64,000 nucleotides of DNA from the NCBI RefSeq assembly GCF_006345805.1, contig NC_043003.1, positions 37,014,001 to 37,078,000 on the forward strand, in the 5' to 3' direction. A model generated the notes under the pieces. It searched no databases, was not told where the DNA came from, and saw nothing but the letters and a program-made list of their open reading frames with translations. This stretch comes from Octopus sinensis. Taxonomy: Eukaryota. The translations under genes were made by a program, and so were the position numbers. Each line of letters opens with the position of its first letter. Position 1 is the stretch's first letter. Positions 17,338-57,667 of this stretch are shown here, one piece after another.

Positions 17338-17543
17338 CTTTTCTACTCTAAGCACAAGGCTCGAAATTTCAGGGGAGGGGGACAGCCGATTAGATCGACC
17401 CCAGTACGCAACTGGTACTTAATTTATCGATCCTGAAAGGCAAAGTCGACCTCAGCGGAATTTGAACTCAGAACGTAAAGACAGACGAAATACTGCTAAG
17501 CATTTCGCCCGGCGTGCTAACGTTTCTGCCAGCTCGCCGCCTT
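17338..17543 (-). mobile_element. SINE family A with a target-site duplication
   Basis: Full head ends at 17543. It is flanked by direct repeats acaagactgttaatat (~17322) and acaagtttgttaatat (~17545). Confidence 0.9.
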
Positions 17544-17570
17544 ACAAGTTTGTTAATATTATACTATAAG

Positions 17571-18380
17571 AAGGCGGCGGGCTGGCAGAAACGTTAGCAC
17601 ACCGGGCGAAATGCTTAGCGGTATTTCGTCTGCCGTTACGTTCTGAGTTCAAATTCCGCCGAGGTCGACTTTACCTTTCATCCTTTCTGGGTCGATAAAT
17701 TAAGTACCAGTTATGCACTGTGGTCGATGTAATGGACTTAATACCTATGTCTGTCCTTGTTTGACCCCTCTATGTTTAGCCCCTTGTGGGTAATAAAGAA
17801 ACAGGTATTTCGTCTGTCTGAACATTCTGAGTTCAAATTCTGCCGAGGTTGACTTTGCCTTTCATCCTTGTGGGGTTGAATAAATAAGTACCAGTTACGC
17901 ACTGGGGTCGATATAATCGACTTAATCCGTTTGTCTGTCATTGTTTGTCCTCTCTGTGTTTAGCCTCTTGTGGGTAGTAAAGAAATAGAAATAGGTATTT
18001 CGTCAGTCTTTACGTTCTGAGTTAGAATTCCACCGAAGTCAACTTTGCTTTTCATCCTTTCGGGGTCTATAAAATGAGTACCAGTTGACTACTGAAGTTG
18101 ATCTTATCCACTTACCCACTAATCCGAAATTTCTGGCCTTGTACCAAAATTTGAAACTAATATTATAATAATATTATATTATAAAGCACACCGGACAAAA
18201 TGCTTAGCGGCATTTAGTCCGTCTTTGATTTCTGAGTTCAAATTCCGACAATGTTGTATTTTGCCTTTCGTCCTTTAGGGGTCGCTGAAAAAAGTGACTG
18301 TTGAGAATTGGGGGGGTTGATGTAATCGATTATCCCTTTAGCCCCAGAATCCTAGGCCTTGTGTCAATAGCAGGATGGAT
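17571..18380 (+). mobile_element. Multimeric SINE family A: one head plus three internal units, followed by a further degenerate copy
   Basis: The unit beginning gtatttcgtc recurs at ~17621, ~17805 and ~17995. Another copy lies at ~18185-18380. Confidence 0.9.
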
Positions 18381-37186: not shown

Positions 37187-37249
<63 letters not shown>

Positions 37250-37361
37250 AATTATCAAATAACCATTATAATGTATACGCATAAATTATAATGGTTATTT
37301 GACAATTTTTATCTTTCTTTCGGCATATTTGGCATTAGAATTTTTCTTTGCCTTTATTTTG

Positions 37362-37420
<59 letters not shown>

Positions 37421-38741: not shown

Positions 38742-39027
38742 CAAATATATATATATATATGTATATACAATATAATATTATATTACATTATATTTATGTG
38801 TGCATCTTGATTTGCTTTATGTATCTGTGTGCGCATGTGTGAACGTATGTGTCTACATCTAGGCACACCAATAGATATGGGTGTATATTAAATATGTTTA
38901 TATATGACGTAAAATGAAGGATAGGAAATGATATTTGTTTAATGTGGTTAAATCTGAAAATTTTATTTTTATTAAACCATAAAACTTAACTACATGAACC
39001 TACATATACATACATACATATATATAT

Positions 39028-39071
<44 letters not shown>

Positions 39072-39629
39072 GCACACACGCACACATACCTGTACACATG
39101 CATACCAATACACACGCATACACACACACATATCTGTGTTCTACATTTTTTGCTTACTGTCGCTTACGTGTTCTCCTCTTTCGCCTCTTTATTTTAAAAA
39201 TATTTAAATTTCTATTTAAATATCAGACTCTAGGTATACTTGCAGTCATTTGCAAGCAGCAACTGTTTACTTATCTATATTTTGTTTCATATTGATTTAA
39301 ATCCGATAATATAATTCGTCATTTGGTTTTACTACCAATATAAAAAGGAATTGCGATTTTTCATCTCTATTTTTTATATTCAAACCCACAAACATACATA
39401 CACACGTACCCTCGTATGCGTGTGTTTGCGTGTGTGAGTGTATTTTCTATACTGGAATATACAGTAATGGAGGAATATTAAATACGAAATGCTCATAAAA
39501 ATAGGAAACCATCTATAAGCGAAAAAACATAGATGTCTGTATACATATATGTGTGTGTGCGTGCATGTGTATGTGGGTCGGCTTTTCTGTGTGTCTATCT
39601 ATCTATATATATATATGTATGTGTGTGCA

Positions 39630-45103: not shown

Positions 45104-45384
45104 ATCACGCGAAACCGACCAGACCATCAGATGTTGCTACACATCGCTGGTCAGAATGCGTTCGCATTGATTTAGCCTTCGACTGACGCCACCCCGCTGG
45201 CTAAGCGAGTAGGCCAACAGAAGAAAAGTGGAGAGAAAGAGTGGTGAAAGAGTACAACATGGGTCACCACCCCCAATCGGAGCTCGTGGAGCTTTTAGGT
45301 GTTTTCGCTCAAAAACCACACACGATGTCTGGGAATCGAAACACGCGAGTCCGCTGCCCTAGCCACTGGGCCATTGCGCCTCCT
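45104..45384 (-). mobile_element. tRNA-derived SINE, family E, embedded in (TA)n
   Basis: The minus-strand head reads ggaggcgcaatggcccagtggctagggcagcggactcgcg...gtttcgattccc, with A and B boxes and part of the tRNA region deleted. Confidence 0.75.
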
Positions 45385-45387
45385 ATA

Positions 45388-45461
<74 letters not shown>

Positions 45462-45557
45462 TTAGAGACAAAACCACTATTATGCAAATCAAACAAAGAA
45501 AGACTTAAGCCAATACATAAAATAATTTATATAAATTTAGAATTTAACAATATAAAT

Positions 45558-45618
45558 AACCACTACGATCGTTTCATGTCTTATTTCAGCACATCTTTGA
45601 GACATTCTTCAGGTGGTT
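45558..45618 (-). ncRNA. Type I hammerhead ribozyme, antisense-arm copy
   Basis: Reverse complement of 45910-45970. Confidence 0.85.
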
Positions 45619-45909
45619 TCAAAACCAGACTCAATATTCAATAAACCATTAAATATTTAATATTTATTAATAAAATATTTATTAATACAATGAAAAACCA
45701 TGTATAATCTAACTATAATTAAAAACATAACCTAATTAACTAAAAAAATTATTATAATAAGTACTCCATATCACTTAGTATATTTATAATACTAGAACAA
45801 AAACCAATAAATAAGGAGCTATTTAGATGGTTTTTCATTGTATTAATAAATATTCTATTAATAAATATTAAATATTTAATGGTTTATTGAATATTGAGTC
45901 TGGTTTTGA

Positions 45910-45970
45910 AACCACCTGAAGAATGTCTCAAAGATGTGCTGAAATAAGACATGAAACGATCGTAGTGGTT
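45910..45970 (+). ncRNA. Type I hammerhead ribozyme
   Basis: aaccac CTGAAGA atgtct-[18 nt]-agacat GAAAC gatc GTA gtggtt. Stem I is 6 bp, stem II is 6 bp, the stem III loop is palindromic and the cleavage triplet is GUA. Confidence 0.88.
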
Positions 45971-46163
45971 ATTTATAATTGTTAAATTTCTAAATTTATA
46001 TAAATTATTTTATGTATTGGCTTAAGTCTTTCTTTGTTTGATTTGCATAATAGTGGTTTTGTCTCTAATTTAATATAATATAATATTTTACTATAAAATT
46101 GGATTCAATCCTAAATCTGATTTTTCCCTGTAAATTTGGATTTATTCCCTAATATTTATTATT

Positions 46164-46205
<42 letters not shown>

Positions 46206-46252
46206 CATACATACATACATACATACATACATACATACATACAACACAAAGC

Positions 46253-46291
<39 letters not shown>

Positions 46292-46674
46292 CGCACACAG
46301 AAAATGTGTGTCACTGACAAACGGACGCGTCAATATAGATATGGTAAGTTTTCGATTACCAAGAAGAAAACATGAATTGGGGTAGCCTTCAGTCTTTACA
46401 TTGAGAGGACTTCCTTCTAAGTATTTGTCTTATCGTAAGGCACGTGTTACGCTCATAACTTTTGGAGCAAATATCGTATCAGCTTTACCGCACTAATGCC
46501 GTAAATTCGAAACATCGTAACCAAAACAATCATAAGACATGTGTGTATGTATGCATGCATGTATGTATATATGCATGCATGTATGTATGCATGCATATGT
46601 ATGTATGTATGTATGTATGTATGTGTTTGTATATGTGTGTATGCATGTATGTCAGGGTTTTTTTTATACATTTT

Positions 46675-47037
46675 AAGCGCAAGCCTGGCTGTGTCATAAG
46701 AAACTTGCTTCCCGACCACACGGTACAGGGTTTAGTCTCACAGCGTGGCACCTTGACCAATTGCTTTATAGCCTCAGGCATACCAAAGTTTTGAGTGGGT
46801 TTGGTACACGGAAACTAAAAGAAGCCCGTTGTGTGTGTGTGTGAGACCATCGGTTGACAACCGGTGTTGGTGTGTTTACGTCCCTGTAACTAAGCGATTC
46901 GGCAAAAGTGACCGATAGAATAAGTACCATGTTTGACAATAACATAAGTACTGGGGCCGATTCATTCGACGAAGATAAATATTTCAAGGCGTTATCTCAG
47001 CATGGTCGCTGTCTAATGATTGAAACAAGTAAAAGAT
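46675..47037 (+). mobile_element. SINE family B, full length and diverged
   Basis: Both halves are present with a short (TG)n spacer. Confidence 0.85.
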
Positions 47038-47868
47038 AGCAGATAAAACGATAGAAAGAGAGAGATACATACATATTCACATACATAGATACATACATAC
47101 AGATCTGATTGCTAGATAGATACGTACATACATATTTATAGACATAGGTATAATAAATGCGAATGTTAATGTGTCAGTGTGTCACACTTTTTCAGCTTTA
47201 CTTCTAGAGACCGTAGCCCAACATATCATACCATTTTGGAATCAGGTTGACTCCTTGAGTAAATTGATAATATTCCCGGCCGAATCCGGACCCGCAATCC
47301 TGAAATTTTCATTATTGCGATTGTTTTCGTCGATTTTTACGTGATTTTTTGCGACGAATTTTTATTCCGAAAAAACTTTTTCCTCTCCCGAAATGCAATT
47401 CGTAAAAGTTTGCCATTTATCCGGATGTAATATAATGTAAACCTCACCCATGTGCTTCGTTTGATGTTGATCAGTAGCTGATCGGCTTAAGCGGGGCAGG
47501 GTCGTTGTTTATTTATAATACATTCAGGCCTGCTGATGATTACGTAAGTATGAAATCACTGTGATACAGGTCTATATTTTAAATGTCTTACTTTGAAAAA
47601 TTGCATTCGGTGGGATTAGTAAATTTTTGGTATAAATGACTAAATTGTCCCTCTTAGCGTTTGGCATGTAAGTATAATGCCTTCTGGCATGTATGTATAA
47701 TGCCCTCTATATATAAATTAATATGTTCAATAAGAAATAATTATTTCGAAATTTTTTCTCTTATGAGGTTTTTACGCTATCTACCTGACAATTTCTTGTT
47801 AAGTTTTCCCTTATTAAGTAGTTGTCCTTAATTGCTATATATATATAATATATATATATATATAAATA

Positions 47869-48240
47869 TATTAGAGACAAAACCACTATTTTGCAAAACA
47901 AACAAGGAAAGACTTAATCAATACATAAAATTTTAATAAATAGTCAAAAAAAACCGCCACTACAATTGTTCTCTTGTCTTGATCGACATCTTCAGGTGGA
48001 CTTCGAACTGACTTATTGGAAGTCCACCTGAAGATTGTCGATCAAGACAAGAAACAATTGTAGTGGTGGGTTTTTTTGACTATTTATTAAAATTTTATGT
48101 ATTGATTAAGTCTTTCCTTGTTTGTTTTGCAAAATAGTGGTTTTGTCTCTAATAATATTTTATAATATTTTACTATAAATTGGATTTAATCCTAAATCTG
48201 ATTTTTTCCCTGTAAATTTGGATTTTCCCTAATATTTATT
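47869..48240 (+). mobile_element. (TA)n-embedded fold-back element: 136-bp arms (47869-48004 and 48019-48154) plus tail
   Basis: Inverted arms. The tail aatcctaaatctgattttt...ccctgtaaatttggattt is shared with 46077-46162. Confidence 0.92.
48024..48066 (+). ncRNA. Minimal type I hammerhead ribozyme
   Basis: ccac CTGAAGA ttgtc gatcaa gacaa GAAAC aatt GTA gtgg. A slightly damaged antisense copy lies at 47957-47999. Confidence 0.88.
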
Positions 48241-48262
48241 ATATATATATATATATATATAT

Positions 48263-48593
48263 ATACAAGTAATGAGAGTCTACATGTGGTCACTCTAACG
48301 CTAGATATAGATCCACGAAGGGAGTCCACCACTAAAGAATTGTTCTCAAGAATTAGTTCAACGCGCCAAGAATGCTTACATTCTTGGTGCGTTGAACTAA
48401 TTCTTGAGAACAATTCTTTAGTGGTGATTCCATTCGTGGATCTATATCTAGCGTTAGAGTGACCACATGTGGACTCTCTCTCATTACTTGTATTAATAAT
48501 TTTTACTGTATCCCAGTTTTTTATACGCTAGGCCACTTGGTGTTTTAAATTGATGTTAGTAATTAATATTCAATTTTTTTCACCCTTATGTGA

Positions 48594-48600
<7 letters not shown>
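48263..48600. mobile_element. (TA)n-embedded fold-back element: ~112-bp arms, 4-nt loop, plus tail
   Basis: 48263-48374 is the reverse complement of 48379-48493. A unique tail runs to ~48600. Confidence 0.88.
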
Positions 48601-48660
<60 letters not shown>

Positions 48661-50497: not shown

Positions 50498-51097
50498 GCG
50501 TATGTATATATATATATGTGTGTGCTGTAATGTATATATATATATGTACACATAAATTATACATATATATGTAATATAAGCATATACATATACATACATA
50601 CATACATACATATATATATATATATATGTACACATAAATTATACATATATATGTAATATAAGCATATACATATACATACATACATACATATATATATATA
50701 TATACTTATACATACACACATATATATGCCAAATACCTACATATATATATGTGTGTGCTGTAATGTATATATATATGAACACACATGCATATGTGATCAT
50801 ATATATATATGCACACACACATATATGTATATATATATATGTACACATAAATTATACATATATATGTAATATAAGCATATACATATACATACATACATAT
50901 ATATATATATACTTATACATACACACATATATATGCGCAAATACCTACATATATATATATGTGTGTGCTGTAATGTATATATATATGAACACACATGCAT
51001 ATGTGATCATATATATATATATACGCACACACACACATATATGTATATATATATATATGTGTGTGTGTGTATGTGTGTGTGAGTGTGTGTGTGAGTG
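50460..51097. repeat. TA/CA-derived compound minisatellite with higher-order duplication
   Basis: Blocks gtgtgctgtaatgt and gtacacataaattatacatatatatgtaatataagc each occur three times. Confidence 0.85.
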
Positions 51098-51592
51098 TGA
51101 AATAATATTTGTTTAATGAGGTAAAATCTGAAAATATACAGAACATTTTATAAACAACAATACAAAACTAAATGAAACTATAAATTTGCTCTATAGTTTA
51201 TATATTATCTCAGTGTTTTTCCTCATTTTACGTCTTTATTTTGAAAATATTTAAATTTCAGTTTATATATCAAAACTTAAGTATATGCACAGTCATTCGC
51301 AGGAAGCAACGGTTTATGTATATCTCGCATCATATTGATTTAATATAGATGGTACAACACGTCATTTCATTTTAATAACAATAAAAAAAAAGATGTAGTT
51401 TTTCATCTCTACTTTTGATATTCACACACATATACTAAGCTTTCTAAGCTAGAAGATACCATAATAGAATATTAAATGCAGAACACGCATAAAAAGAGGC
51501 AGTATGCTGTCAACCAAAAGATACAGGTAGATGTGTAAGTGTGTGTGTATCGATAAAGAAAGAGAGAGAGAGACAGAGGTGTGTGTATGCCT

Positions 51593-51951: not shown

Positions 51952-51992
<41 letters not shown>

Positions 51993-52553
51993 GGATGTCT
52001 TAGAAATATATTCCGAACATACAATAACAGCCATACAAAAAATCCAATCTACCTCTATCATCAGCTGCCCCACGGATATCACTATTGTTTCGACACCTGG
52101 GCAGTACCATTCAATCCGGTGATGTCAACAGCACTAAAATAGGTGTTGTTTGGGTACAAACATACCTTAGGTATCATTAGGTATCACCACATTCATTCAA
52201 TCTTAACACTAGGAAGGATGGATTAAACACTAACATTATTAAACTACAACAAAAAAAAAACACATTTATCCTACGTACAAAAGCAGCATCGGTAAATAAA
52301 ATCAATAAGTAAATCTATAACTAACTCCAAAATCATCTAACTAAATAGCAACCTAGCCCTTGGGGTGAGTGGACAAACGAAAGAAAGGCACTCGACCAAT
52401 TTATTGGGAGTTACATGTAAGAGATCAAAACAGTTTGATTCAACTTCGTTTGTACTCTTGAGTTTCAAGCATGATGGCAGATGACTAACATCATGCTTGA
52501 AACTCAAGGGTACCAACGAATTTGAATCAAACTGTATTGATCCATATATAGAG

Positions 52554-55519: not shown

Positions 55520-56850
55520 GTGCAACTAGAAAATTTGTACAAGTCTCAGAAAGTAGACTTGCAAAAAGAATTCAGGAGGATTAAAGACACTTGGTGGAGA
55601 AAATTGTCTGAGGAAGTACAGGCGGCCTATGACAGGAAAGACATTAAAAGTTTTTATACTTTATTGCAGCAAGCTTTTGGACCCCAATCTTCACCATATG
55701 TTTCCTTGAAGTCAAAAGATGGAAATGAGGAACTACACAGAAACATGTAAGTTCAGGTAGTCTTTAATGGTGAGCTATCTTGTGAATTTTCGGTGGACAA
55801 CGGTGTCAAACATGGAGATATTCCTGCACCTACACTTTTGCCTATTTATTTTGCTGCATTGCTTTGGTATGCTTTCAAGGGTTGCAATAGGGGAGTCAGA
55901 ACCAGATTTCAGACATCTTGTCTCAAATGAAATGGGCTGGACATGTTATTACAAAGAAAGATGAGCAGTTACCAAAGCGTCTTTTTTATGGTGATCTCAA
56001 GTCTGGTAAGCGACCACAACATAAGCCGAGGAAAAGGTGTAAAGACTGTATGAAGAAAACCCGAAGAAACTAGATCTGAACAAATGTGATAGGGAAATTG
56101 ATGTTCTGGATCGGAACAAGTGGAGAGGTACTATTAGGACTGGTTGCAGTTCCTGGGAGGAAAAATCTGACCCGGTTTAACTGCAAAGCAAAATACTTGT
56201 AAGAGAATTACTCCACGCTAATGATCCTGATTTGTTGGTACACTCAGACGTGGATATGCAACATTTAATGGACAGAGTTGGCACTGCATGTGTACATTTC
56301 GGACTCACAATTAATCTTGAGAAAACCAAAGGAATGTTTACTCCTCTGACTGGACAAACATTTACTGATACACGCCTTCTTGCGAATGGAACAAGGTTAG
56401 AAGTCGTTGATACTTTTATTTACCTTGGAAGCACACCGTCAAGAGATTGTGGTCTTGATGTAGAGATATACTATCGAATAGGGAAGGGAAGTGCTGTATT
56501 TGGAAAGCTCGAAAAGTGAGTATGCGCAGATACAGGTATTTCCCTGCAGACAAAAATCAGTGTGTATAAAACGTGTGTATTGACTGCACTTCTTTATTCG
56601 AGTGAGACGTGGACAACTTACAGGCGTCATATGAAAATACTGGAGAGATTTCATCAAAAGTGCCTAAGAAGTATCTTAGGAGTCAAGTTGGAATGTTCCA
56701 TACCAGAATGTTTCATGCTCATGGCATGTTGTAGCTCAGTTGAACAACATGTTATCTTGGCTCAAATGAAATGGGCTGGATATGATATTACAATGAAAGA
56801 TGAGCAGTTGCCAAAGCGTCTTTTACTATGGTGAGCTCTGGTAAGTGGCC
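55520..56850 (+). mobile_element. RTE-clade LINE remnant, degenerate and rearranged
   Basis: Motifs NGVKHGDIPAPTL, ELLHAND (cf. LFADD), FGLTINLEKTK, FIYLGS, VYKTCVLTALLYSSETWT, LERFHQKCLRSILGV and QMKWAG...DEQLPKRL. Confidence 0.88.
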
Positions 56851-56945
56851 ATAACATAAGCCGGTACGCGGTGGCCACAACATAAGCCGTACCAAGCCCG
56901 TACGCGATGATGTCTATCTTTATGTGTATATATATATATATATTT

Positions 56946-57022
56946 TCCCCTGATGAAGGAGGTATTACCTGGATGCACCCTAGTGCTTTAAACATAATAC
57001 ACCCCTGAAATGGCCATAGGGA
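56946..57022 (+). ncRNA. Type I hammerhead ribozyme from a second, unrelated family
   Basis: tccc CTGATGA agg-aggtatta...taatac-acccct GAAA t ggcc a TA ggga. Stem I is tccc/ggga, the stem III loop GGCC is palindromic and the triplet is AUA. It directly follows (TA)n. Confidence 0.82.
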
Positions 57023-57568
57023 TAAGTAAATATGGTTCCCTTTTTAACTATAAGGCTTCTTTTACTTGAATAATTATTTAATAAGATTTCTAAACGATGA
57101 ACTTTTATTTTATTTACATGATATATATTATAATTTTTATATGCTCCTATATGTATATATATTTTATATATTTTTATATACCTATATATTTTTATATATT
57201 ACTTTATATTATATTTTTACTTTCTAGGTGTTGTAATGTTTTAAAAAAAAAAATGTATTTTTCTGAATCGCTAAAGTATTAACTCTAAACTGTGGAAAAA
57301 AAAAAAAATTTTTCTCGCACCTTATTATTATTATTATTATTATATGCTTGTATGCTTGTATAGATGAATTATGTTCCATCTTGCGAGATGTTTATATGTA
57401 TATTCTATGATTAAATGTTCGAATTATGAAATGATATGCGGATGACCTTGCATTTGTTTGTTCAATAACTTTAGTTTGATATTTTTGTCTCTTTCAATAG
57501 AGCACTTCTATAGCAGTCCTATTAATCTTTTTGTACCTGACAAGAAACAATCACTGTATTATCGATAT

Positions 57569-57667
<99 letters not shown>

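Follow-up and report, generated by a model that had tools for sequence, protein, structure and literature searches.

The window analysed here, 64,000 nucleotides of Octopus sinensis contig NC_043003.1 (assembly GCF_006345805.1, positions 37,014,001 to 37,078,000), contains six short fold-back units set in (TA)n tracts, together with interspersed repeats, LINE remnants and microsatellites (Table 1). A tail-blind fold-back scan of the repeat-masked window (score at least 18, spacer up to 400 nt) returned 10 loci, comprising 13 diagonals, and 0/20 local shuffles gave any. The 10 are the five fold-backs described in an earlier note on this DNA, here termed F1, F2, A, B and C, all present where that note had placed them, a sixth unit that it had overlooked, two pairs of interspersed repeats, and loci at 52423-52542 and 59809-59850, the latter a tandem 18-mer. 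The sixth unit, which has TA tracts on both sides, surfaced among the segments between TA tracts.

The geometry of the units is simple. Two arms, inverted relative to each other, enclose a spacer or centre of 125 (A), 96 (F2), 14 (B, F1) or 4 nt (C, sixth unit), and exactly one arm is tailed in all six, the tails being ~48 (F1), 100 (F2), 88 (A), 85 (B), 110 (C) and ~54 nt (sixth unit) long. One end of every unit is thus an unpaired tail, so the ends are not mutual inverted repeats, i.e. a feature of MITEs and other elements with TIRs is absent. The arms within units differ by 1-9 substitutions plus indels, which argues against fold-back read chimeras. ADAR editing was considered as a source of these differences and rejected, there being no A>G excess (2 A>G, 1 G>A and 11 C/T among 22 substitutions).

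Among the original five units, 9 of the 10 possible pairs have no similarity on either strand, A and B being the sole homologous pair, and no further copies of these units were found within the window. A distant homology of C to A and B, suspected from short look-alike motifs, was rejected (z=0.5 for B-C, z=-0.3 for A-C). The earlier description, that of fold-backs from four unrelated families, set in (TA)n and with a tail of ~50-110 bp on one side only, therefore holds: the families are unrelated at the sensitivity used, and the tails, measured at 48-110 nt, are all on a single side.

Table 1. Fold-back units, TA tracts and other features of the window (positions as in the window; arm identities as identical/aligned columns)
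Feature	Position	Strand	Remark
F1 arm pair	1337-1394/1409-1466		49/58
F1 tailed arm (1337-1394) with 48-nt tail (1289-1336)	1289..1394	-	No hammerhead found
F1 14-nt spacer and tail-less arm (1409-1466)	1395..1466	+	
F2 arm pair	9677-9774/9871-9968		94/98
F2 tail-less arm, running through central spacer	9677..9855	-	Complete hammerhead; core 9790, within spacer; predicted cleavage after 9713
F2 central junction	9856..9870	.	11-nt exact copy of arm sequence
F2 tailed arm (to 9968) with 100-nt tail	9871..10068	+	Arm has only the hammerhead 3' part
Sixth unit	37249..37362	+	28-nt arms 37249-37276/37281-37308, 4-nt centre, ~54-nt tail
A arm pair	45454-45701/45827-46076		247/250
A tail-less inverted arm (to 45701) with 125-nt central spacer	45458..45826	-	Spacer tentatively assigned to this arm
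A tail-less arm hammerhead	core starts 45612	-	Predicted cleavage after 45564
A tailed arm	45827..46072	+	Type I hammerhead core 45916, predicted cleavage after 45964
A tail, ~88 nt	46073..46160	+	Homologous to B tail, same end base; predicted stem-loop inside
B arm pair	47869-48004/48019-48153		132/137
B tail-less inverted arm (to 48004) with 14-nt spacer	47869..48018	-	
B tailed arm	48019..48154	+	Hammerhead core 48028, predicted cleavage after 48062
B tail, ~85 nt	48155..48239	+	
C arm pair	48263-48374/48379-48493		107/116
C tail-less arm	48266..48374	-	4-nt centre 48375-48378; no hammerhead found
C tailed arm (to ~48490) with ~110-nt tail	48379..48600	+	Orientation from tail and strand composition
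(TA)n left of A	45384..45457	.	Presumed target
Matching (TA)n tracts, A/B/C	46163-46201, 47836-47864, 48601-48657		
Matching (TA)n tracts, F2/F1	9636-9670, 10073-10178; 1275-1288, 1467-1489		
Matching (TA)n tracts, sixth unit	37189-37244, 37368-37412		
(TA)n tract common to B tail end and C tail-less end	48240..48265	.	
A/T-only stretches beside tail-less arm end	46073-46100, 48155-48180, 48491-48515, 9969-9980		
Fold-back with long extension	51988..52542		54-nt arms (50/54 identical), 12-nt centre, beside short TA/GATA microsatellite
Hammerhead-like motif	56944..57570	+	Type I; core 56950, palindromic helix III, interrupted helix II
Broken APE-type LINE	5117..8223	-	Exo_endo_phos, RVT_1, zf-RVT; unrelated to fold-backs
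Decayed LINE-like stretch	56181..56926	+	Resembles, by eye, C-terminal part of another LINE ORF; no Pfam match
Open frame, 128 codons	41115..41498	-	Ordinary composition, no Pfam match
Inverted pairs of abundant interspersed repeats	17389-17733, 61107-61509		Not TA-flanked
AT-rich segments	38761-39603, 51059-51500		Homologous-looking by eye; interrupted/flanked by microsatellites

Several of the other features bear on the composition of the window. The two inverted repeat pairs appear SINE-like, and the family at 17.4 kb occurs over a dozen times in the window, in part as tandem copies. For the reverse transcriptase of the broken LINE, the named relatives among the 120 listed are a cuttlefish protein (57% identity) and one from a fish. 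The fold-back at 51988-52542 has a possible hammerhead 3' half in each arm and 435 nt of strongly strand-biased sequence running leftward to a TA tract; it is a possible seventh unit, one whose extension would be far longer than those of the others, and is kept outside the count of six.

The association of the units with TA tracts is close. None of the 12 outer ends is more than 7 nt from a (TA)≥5 tract, whereas the eight ends of the other four fold-back loci lie 39-1221 nt from the nearest such tract; as background, a distance of 15 nt or less holds for 3.6% of non-tract positions. TA tracts are also re-used as targets, in that B and C, which are unrelated, stand back to back (47869-48600) around one 26-nt TA tract, with A 1.7 kb away. 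In five units, F1 being the exception, an A/T-only stretch lies at the end of the tail-less arm or begins just beyond it.

The homologous pair, A and B, is informative with respect to the ends of the units. The two are homologous over arm and tail (z=30, 0/300 shuffles) and ~83% identical, with total lengths of ~705 and ~370 nt. The final base of the tail is the same in both, and one short A/T-only stretch contains the ends of both tail-less arms; since this stretch merges with the TA tract, the common outer point is resolved to roughly ±5 nt. The claim that the inverted arm starts at the same point in both thus survives in the sense that both outer ends are common, at this resolution and with n=2. 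Their arm lengths do differ, as had been claimed, but at ~83% identity the pair is no within-family test against a fixed master.

Four sites in the window match a strict type I hammerhead descriptor that requires a palindromic helix III, all inside fold-backs (two in A and one each in B and F2); 0/200 shuffles gave a match. The predicted hammerhead in the tailed arm of A has 6 bp in helix I, 6 bp in helix II and a palindromic helix III; in the tail-less arm of B the core is broken by indels and is absent from the strict scan. Over the four A/B arms, 49/51 cells remain paired, and helix II and helix III both contain double changes; this compensatory pairing is supporting rather than decisive evidence for a hammerhead, given that there are only two independent lineages, that the structure is read from A and that the main measures are equalled in 13-25 of 500 shuffles. 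In F2 a U-U pair closes helix II, for which an axolotl hammerhead is a precedent (PMC7229834), and the A and B hammerheads are without the G10.1-C11.1 pair typical of hammerheads from Penelope-like elements (PLEs).

With relaxed stems, no full motif was found in C, F1, the sixth unit or the 52423 locus, and no strict match to a variant U3-A8 core in the window. No hammerhead is present among the 150 of 332 Rfam matches listed; every listed match falls below its gathering score, and nearly all involve microRNA models placed on a microsatellite or a hairpin. Free folding recovers helix I in A, B and the motif at 56950, but not in F2, and the full hammerhead fold in none. The 56950 motif itself passes a loose hammerhead scan and fails the strict one. 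It has no inverted arm; a TA tract directly precedes it, and T-rich sequence fills the ~540 nt before the following tract. It is possibly a solo PLE fragment at the end of the decayed LINE-like stretch.

Judged by the hammerhead strand, the tail is 3'-terminal, and in 6/6 units leave-one-out strand composition gives the same orientation. As the strand of the putative ribozyme sets the orientation, the units can be read as two 5'-truncated 3' ends placed head to head, one of which bears the tail.

F2 is the one clean case for how such pairs arise. On the strand of the tail-less arm its spacer supplies the 5' half of a hammerhead, and the motif is complete only when read in this way (0/20000 spacer shuffles), so each arm has sequence missing from the other: neither arm of F2 is a plain copy of the other. 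The 11-nt junction copy was matched in 0/2000 shuffles, with the window for this comparison picked post hoc, and is read as a templated insert; one of four tested junctions has such an insert, which resembles polymerase-theta-type joining. Assignment of the spacer to the tail-less arm is firm in F2 only, with A, B and F1 leaning the same way, weakly. In A it comes from strand composition (LLR 7.9, a value reached by ~18% of background windows), and in B homology gives 16 versus 14.

The available literature describes PLE insertions with an inverted 5'-truncated copy and a 30-40-bp tail at one end, a bias to microsatellites and untraceable target duplications (PMC8557442, PMC3846280, PMC8969392, PMC2377424), and with a TA bias alongside the untraceable TSDs (PMC8557442). 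The units here have the head-to-head inverted 5'-truncated copy, the 3' tail at one end (6/6) and the (TA)n bias; the type I hammerhead with short palindromic helix III near the 3' end, a further PLE feature, is present in 3/6. Their tails, at 48-110 nt, are longer than the published 30-40, which is a typical value and not a defining limit. On this basis A, B and F2 very probably belong to the PLEs, and the Penelope-like reading of the earlier note gains independent evidence from the hammerheads. C, F1 and the sixth unit are likely PLEs as well, either truncated short of the motif or Naiad-like.

A search against Pfam of 280 frames (at least 48 codons, passing a low-complexity filter) gave no PLE coding sequence; the 3/280 with matches all come from the unrelated APE-type LINE. 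Since no PLE coding sequence was found, we infer membership from the non-coding features, more weakly for the three units that have no hammerhead, and regard the units as new examples of a known PLE layout. No tandem direct pLTR copy lies next to any unit, an absence expected in such short truncations, and there were no matches in prokaryotic genomes.

Ordinary MITEs or fold-back DNA transposons at TA microsatellites, replication-error palindromes and assembly artefacts, for which the existence of TA-targeting DNA transposons (PMC4486113) and the want of a ribozyme in C, F1 and the sixth unit can be cited, are a very improbable source of the units and are largely refuted for A, B and F2, given termini that are not mutual inverted repeats, strand-specific hammerheads with compensatory changes, arms that differ by substitutions and indels, and homologous A/B tails; the earlier note's argument against ordinary MITEs is thus supported.

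With regard to mechanism, the work on an Anolis PLE is of particular relevance. The purified protein, a predicted dimer, cuts AT-rich DNA and extends both strands; its reverse transcription in vitro begins at two sites that bound the tail, to which the tail ends were mapped, and the two strands did not differ in start-site use (PMC11167929). The defined priming step that had been proposed for the units agrees with this mapping. The explanation favoured here combines PLE identity with two-sided priming, and stands at about an even chance of being right in both parts. Each unit would be one insertion of an endonuclease-bearing PLE, or of a non-autonomous derivative, reduced to two 5'-truncated 3'-end copies lying head to head within a (TA)n tract. 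The GIY-YIG/RT complex would open the TA tract and prime cDNA from both sides, the distal start giving the tailed arm and the proximal start the tail-less arm; both cDNAs would stop early, at variable points, and then be end-joined centrally, sometimes with a templated insert. With start sites fixed and stops variable, outer ends would be fixed and inner ends variable. The fixed outer point of A and B, two copies that agree to about ±5 nt, is probably the proximal reverse-transcription start site, and a short pairing of this start with the TA target is possible, though not required in vitro.

The constancy of the single tail is a difficulty for this reading. With no strand difference in start-site use in vitro, independent choice of start site gives at most 1/2 per unit, and so at most 1/64 for one tail in 6/6; some coupling must therefore be added to the two-sided model, which needs an asymmetric complex. 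A single hairpin intermediate, again of PLE origin, yields the asymmetry directly: a cDNA or antisense RNA (Arkhipova et al.) would self-prime and be copied out to the tail end, after which the endonuclease would remove the tail of the first, longer arm, either ahead of integration or in the course of it. Self-priming with endonuclease resolution has already been suggested in print (PMC8557442, PMC3846280), and the hairpin would give one tail in 6/6 units with no added assumption, fits a spacer on the tail-less arm (firmly in F2, with A, B and F1 leaning that way) and could account for the 4-nt centres of C and the sixth unit, which resemble fold-back loops. Spacers of 96 and 125 nt are, by contrast, long for a fold-back loop, and the in vitro study reports target-primed extension of both strands rather than a hairpin, at least in the material considered (PMC11167929). 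Two-sided priming is thus ranked modestly above the hairpin, because extension of both strands has been shown in vitro and spacers reach 96-125 nt; the hairpin itself is considered a possible but rather unlikely route.

Less probable again, and best described as doubtful, is a palindromic non-autonomous master for each subfamily that is copied whole, whether through RNA by a PLE enzyme or in the manner of a fold-back DNA element, such that the ends and the inner junction are inherited. The window contains no two copies of one subfamily, and A and B, at ~83% identity, may be two subfamilies with two masters, as such copying would allow. The arms within each unit (247/250 and 132/137) are, on the other hand, far closer to each other than A is to B, so that separate origins or homogenisation would be needed; there is also a different junction in each of the five sequence types, and a long hairpin RNA would presumably be a poor template for reverse transcriptase.

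The snap-back step that the earlier note had coupled with priming fares worse than the priming itself. In its simple form, in which a tailed first-strand cDNA folds on itself and templates its own copy up to a fixed stop, it is compatible with C, F1 and the sixth unit (4-14-nt centres) but predicts a spacer belonging to the tailed arm; the F2 spacer belongs to the tail-less arm (0/20000 shuffles), which contradicts it, and A and B lean likewise, weakly. Simple snap-back is hence regarded as highly improbable.

If two-sided priming is retained and coupling is added, a more specific proposal follows, one that is put forward tentatively and as a whole is unlikely: a PLE dimer would integrate asymmetrically at the two sides of a break in (TA)n, with one distal and one proximal start on two RNA templates, each inverted insertion having exactly one tail and a tail-less arm that tends to be the longer, and such products would occur about once per 10 kb in cephalopod genomes, going by the six in 64 kb here. 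The literature searched, which was thin on subscription papers including older Penelope reviews, contains no statement of this model. Were it correct, the junction statistics of minimal products at this density (~one per 10 kb) would be enough to read the mechanism, and, more speculatively, the units could be the source of much of the self-contained double-stranded RNA that underlies the high A-to-I editing reported in octopus.

The earlier note had presented the architecture as notable; the same layout has already been published as a PLE insertion signature, and six units in a 64-kb window are an ordinary finding for a PLE-rich genome. Their value is rather as a test bed for the PLE mechanism. 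How PLEs form inverted copies and tails has been named as an open question (PMC8557442), and inversion is left unaddressed in the in vitro study, so far as consulted (PMC11167929). Two counts from the window bear on it, i.e. one tail in 6/6 units and a spacer on the tail-less arm in one clean case; they come from six units of a single window, with the spacer firmly assigned in one, and both are scalable to thousands of genomic copies. Units of this sort are likely to be mislabelled as MITEs or unknown repeats. If transcribed, they are ready-made hairpins, and octopus has exceptionally many near-perfect loci that form double-stranded RNA (PMC5625713). As far as searched, the departures from print are the 48-110-nt tails, the coupled two-ended model and these cephalopod units, for which no description was found in a mostly open-access literature.

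Comparison with known systems places the units closest in layout to the endonuclease-bearing (EN+) PLEs with hammerheads, i.e. the Neptune and Penelope/Poseidon clades, including Pen2a_Av of Adineta vaga and PAc of Anolis carolinensis. These have the same inverted, truncated copy on the 5' side and a tail at one end, and the same type I hammerhead with palindromic helix III in the terminal region, at AT-rich or microsatellite targets. The units differ in that they are known from non-coding ends alone, with no tandem pLTR and without the ORF for a telomerase-like RT and GIY-YIG endonuclease that EN+ PLEs carry, and have tails of 48-110 rather than 30-40 nt. Naiad PLEs, whose GIY-YIG domain is N-terminal and which resemble Neptune in their (TA)n microsatellite bias and indiscernible TSDs, combine a TA target with an inverted copy and tail but have no canonical hammerhead, which fits C, F1 and the sixth unit, whereas A, B and F2 carry full ones; C, F1 and the sixth unit may equally have lost the motif by truncation. 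Naiad_Obim and Naiad_Ovul, both from Octopus, are described with a (TA)n preference (PMC8557442 supplement), and five 17-20-nt motifs from A/B, C and F2 gave 0 exact matches in the text of that supplement.

The paired hammerheads also have parallels. In Schistosoma mansoni, opposite-strand pairs of minimal hammerheads lie 100-700 bp apart and are read as truncated PLEs (PMC4209133); the opposite-strand pairing is the same here, with the A cores ~300 nt apart. Non-LTR retrozymes are similarly short, non-coding and PLE-related, with type I hammerheads (PMC7229834; bioRxiv 10.64898/2026.07.22.740005). By contrast, they are head-to-tail tandem monomers whereas the units are head-to-head pairs, and over the hammerheads of the window no tandem array was found, the paired motifs being on opposite strands. 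In L1 twin priming, as in two-sided priming, two target ends each prime a cDNA and the products are joined at a central inversion junction. The second primer of L1, however, anneals internally on the same RNA, so that the inverted part is a different, upstream sequence, whereas in the octopus units both arms cover the same 3' end.
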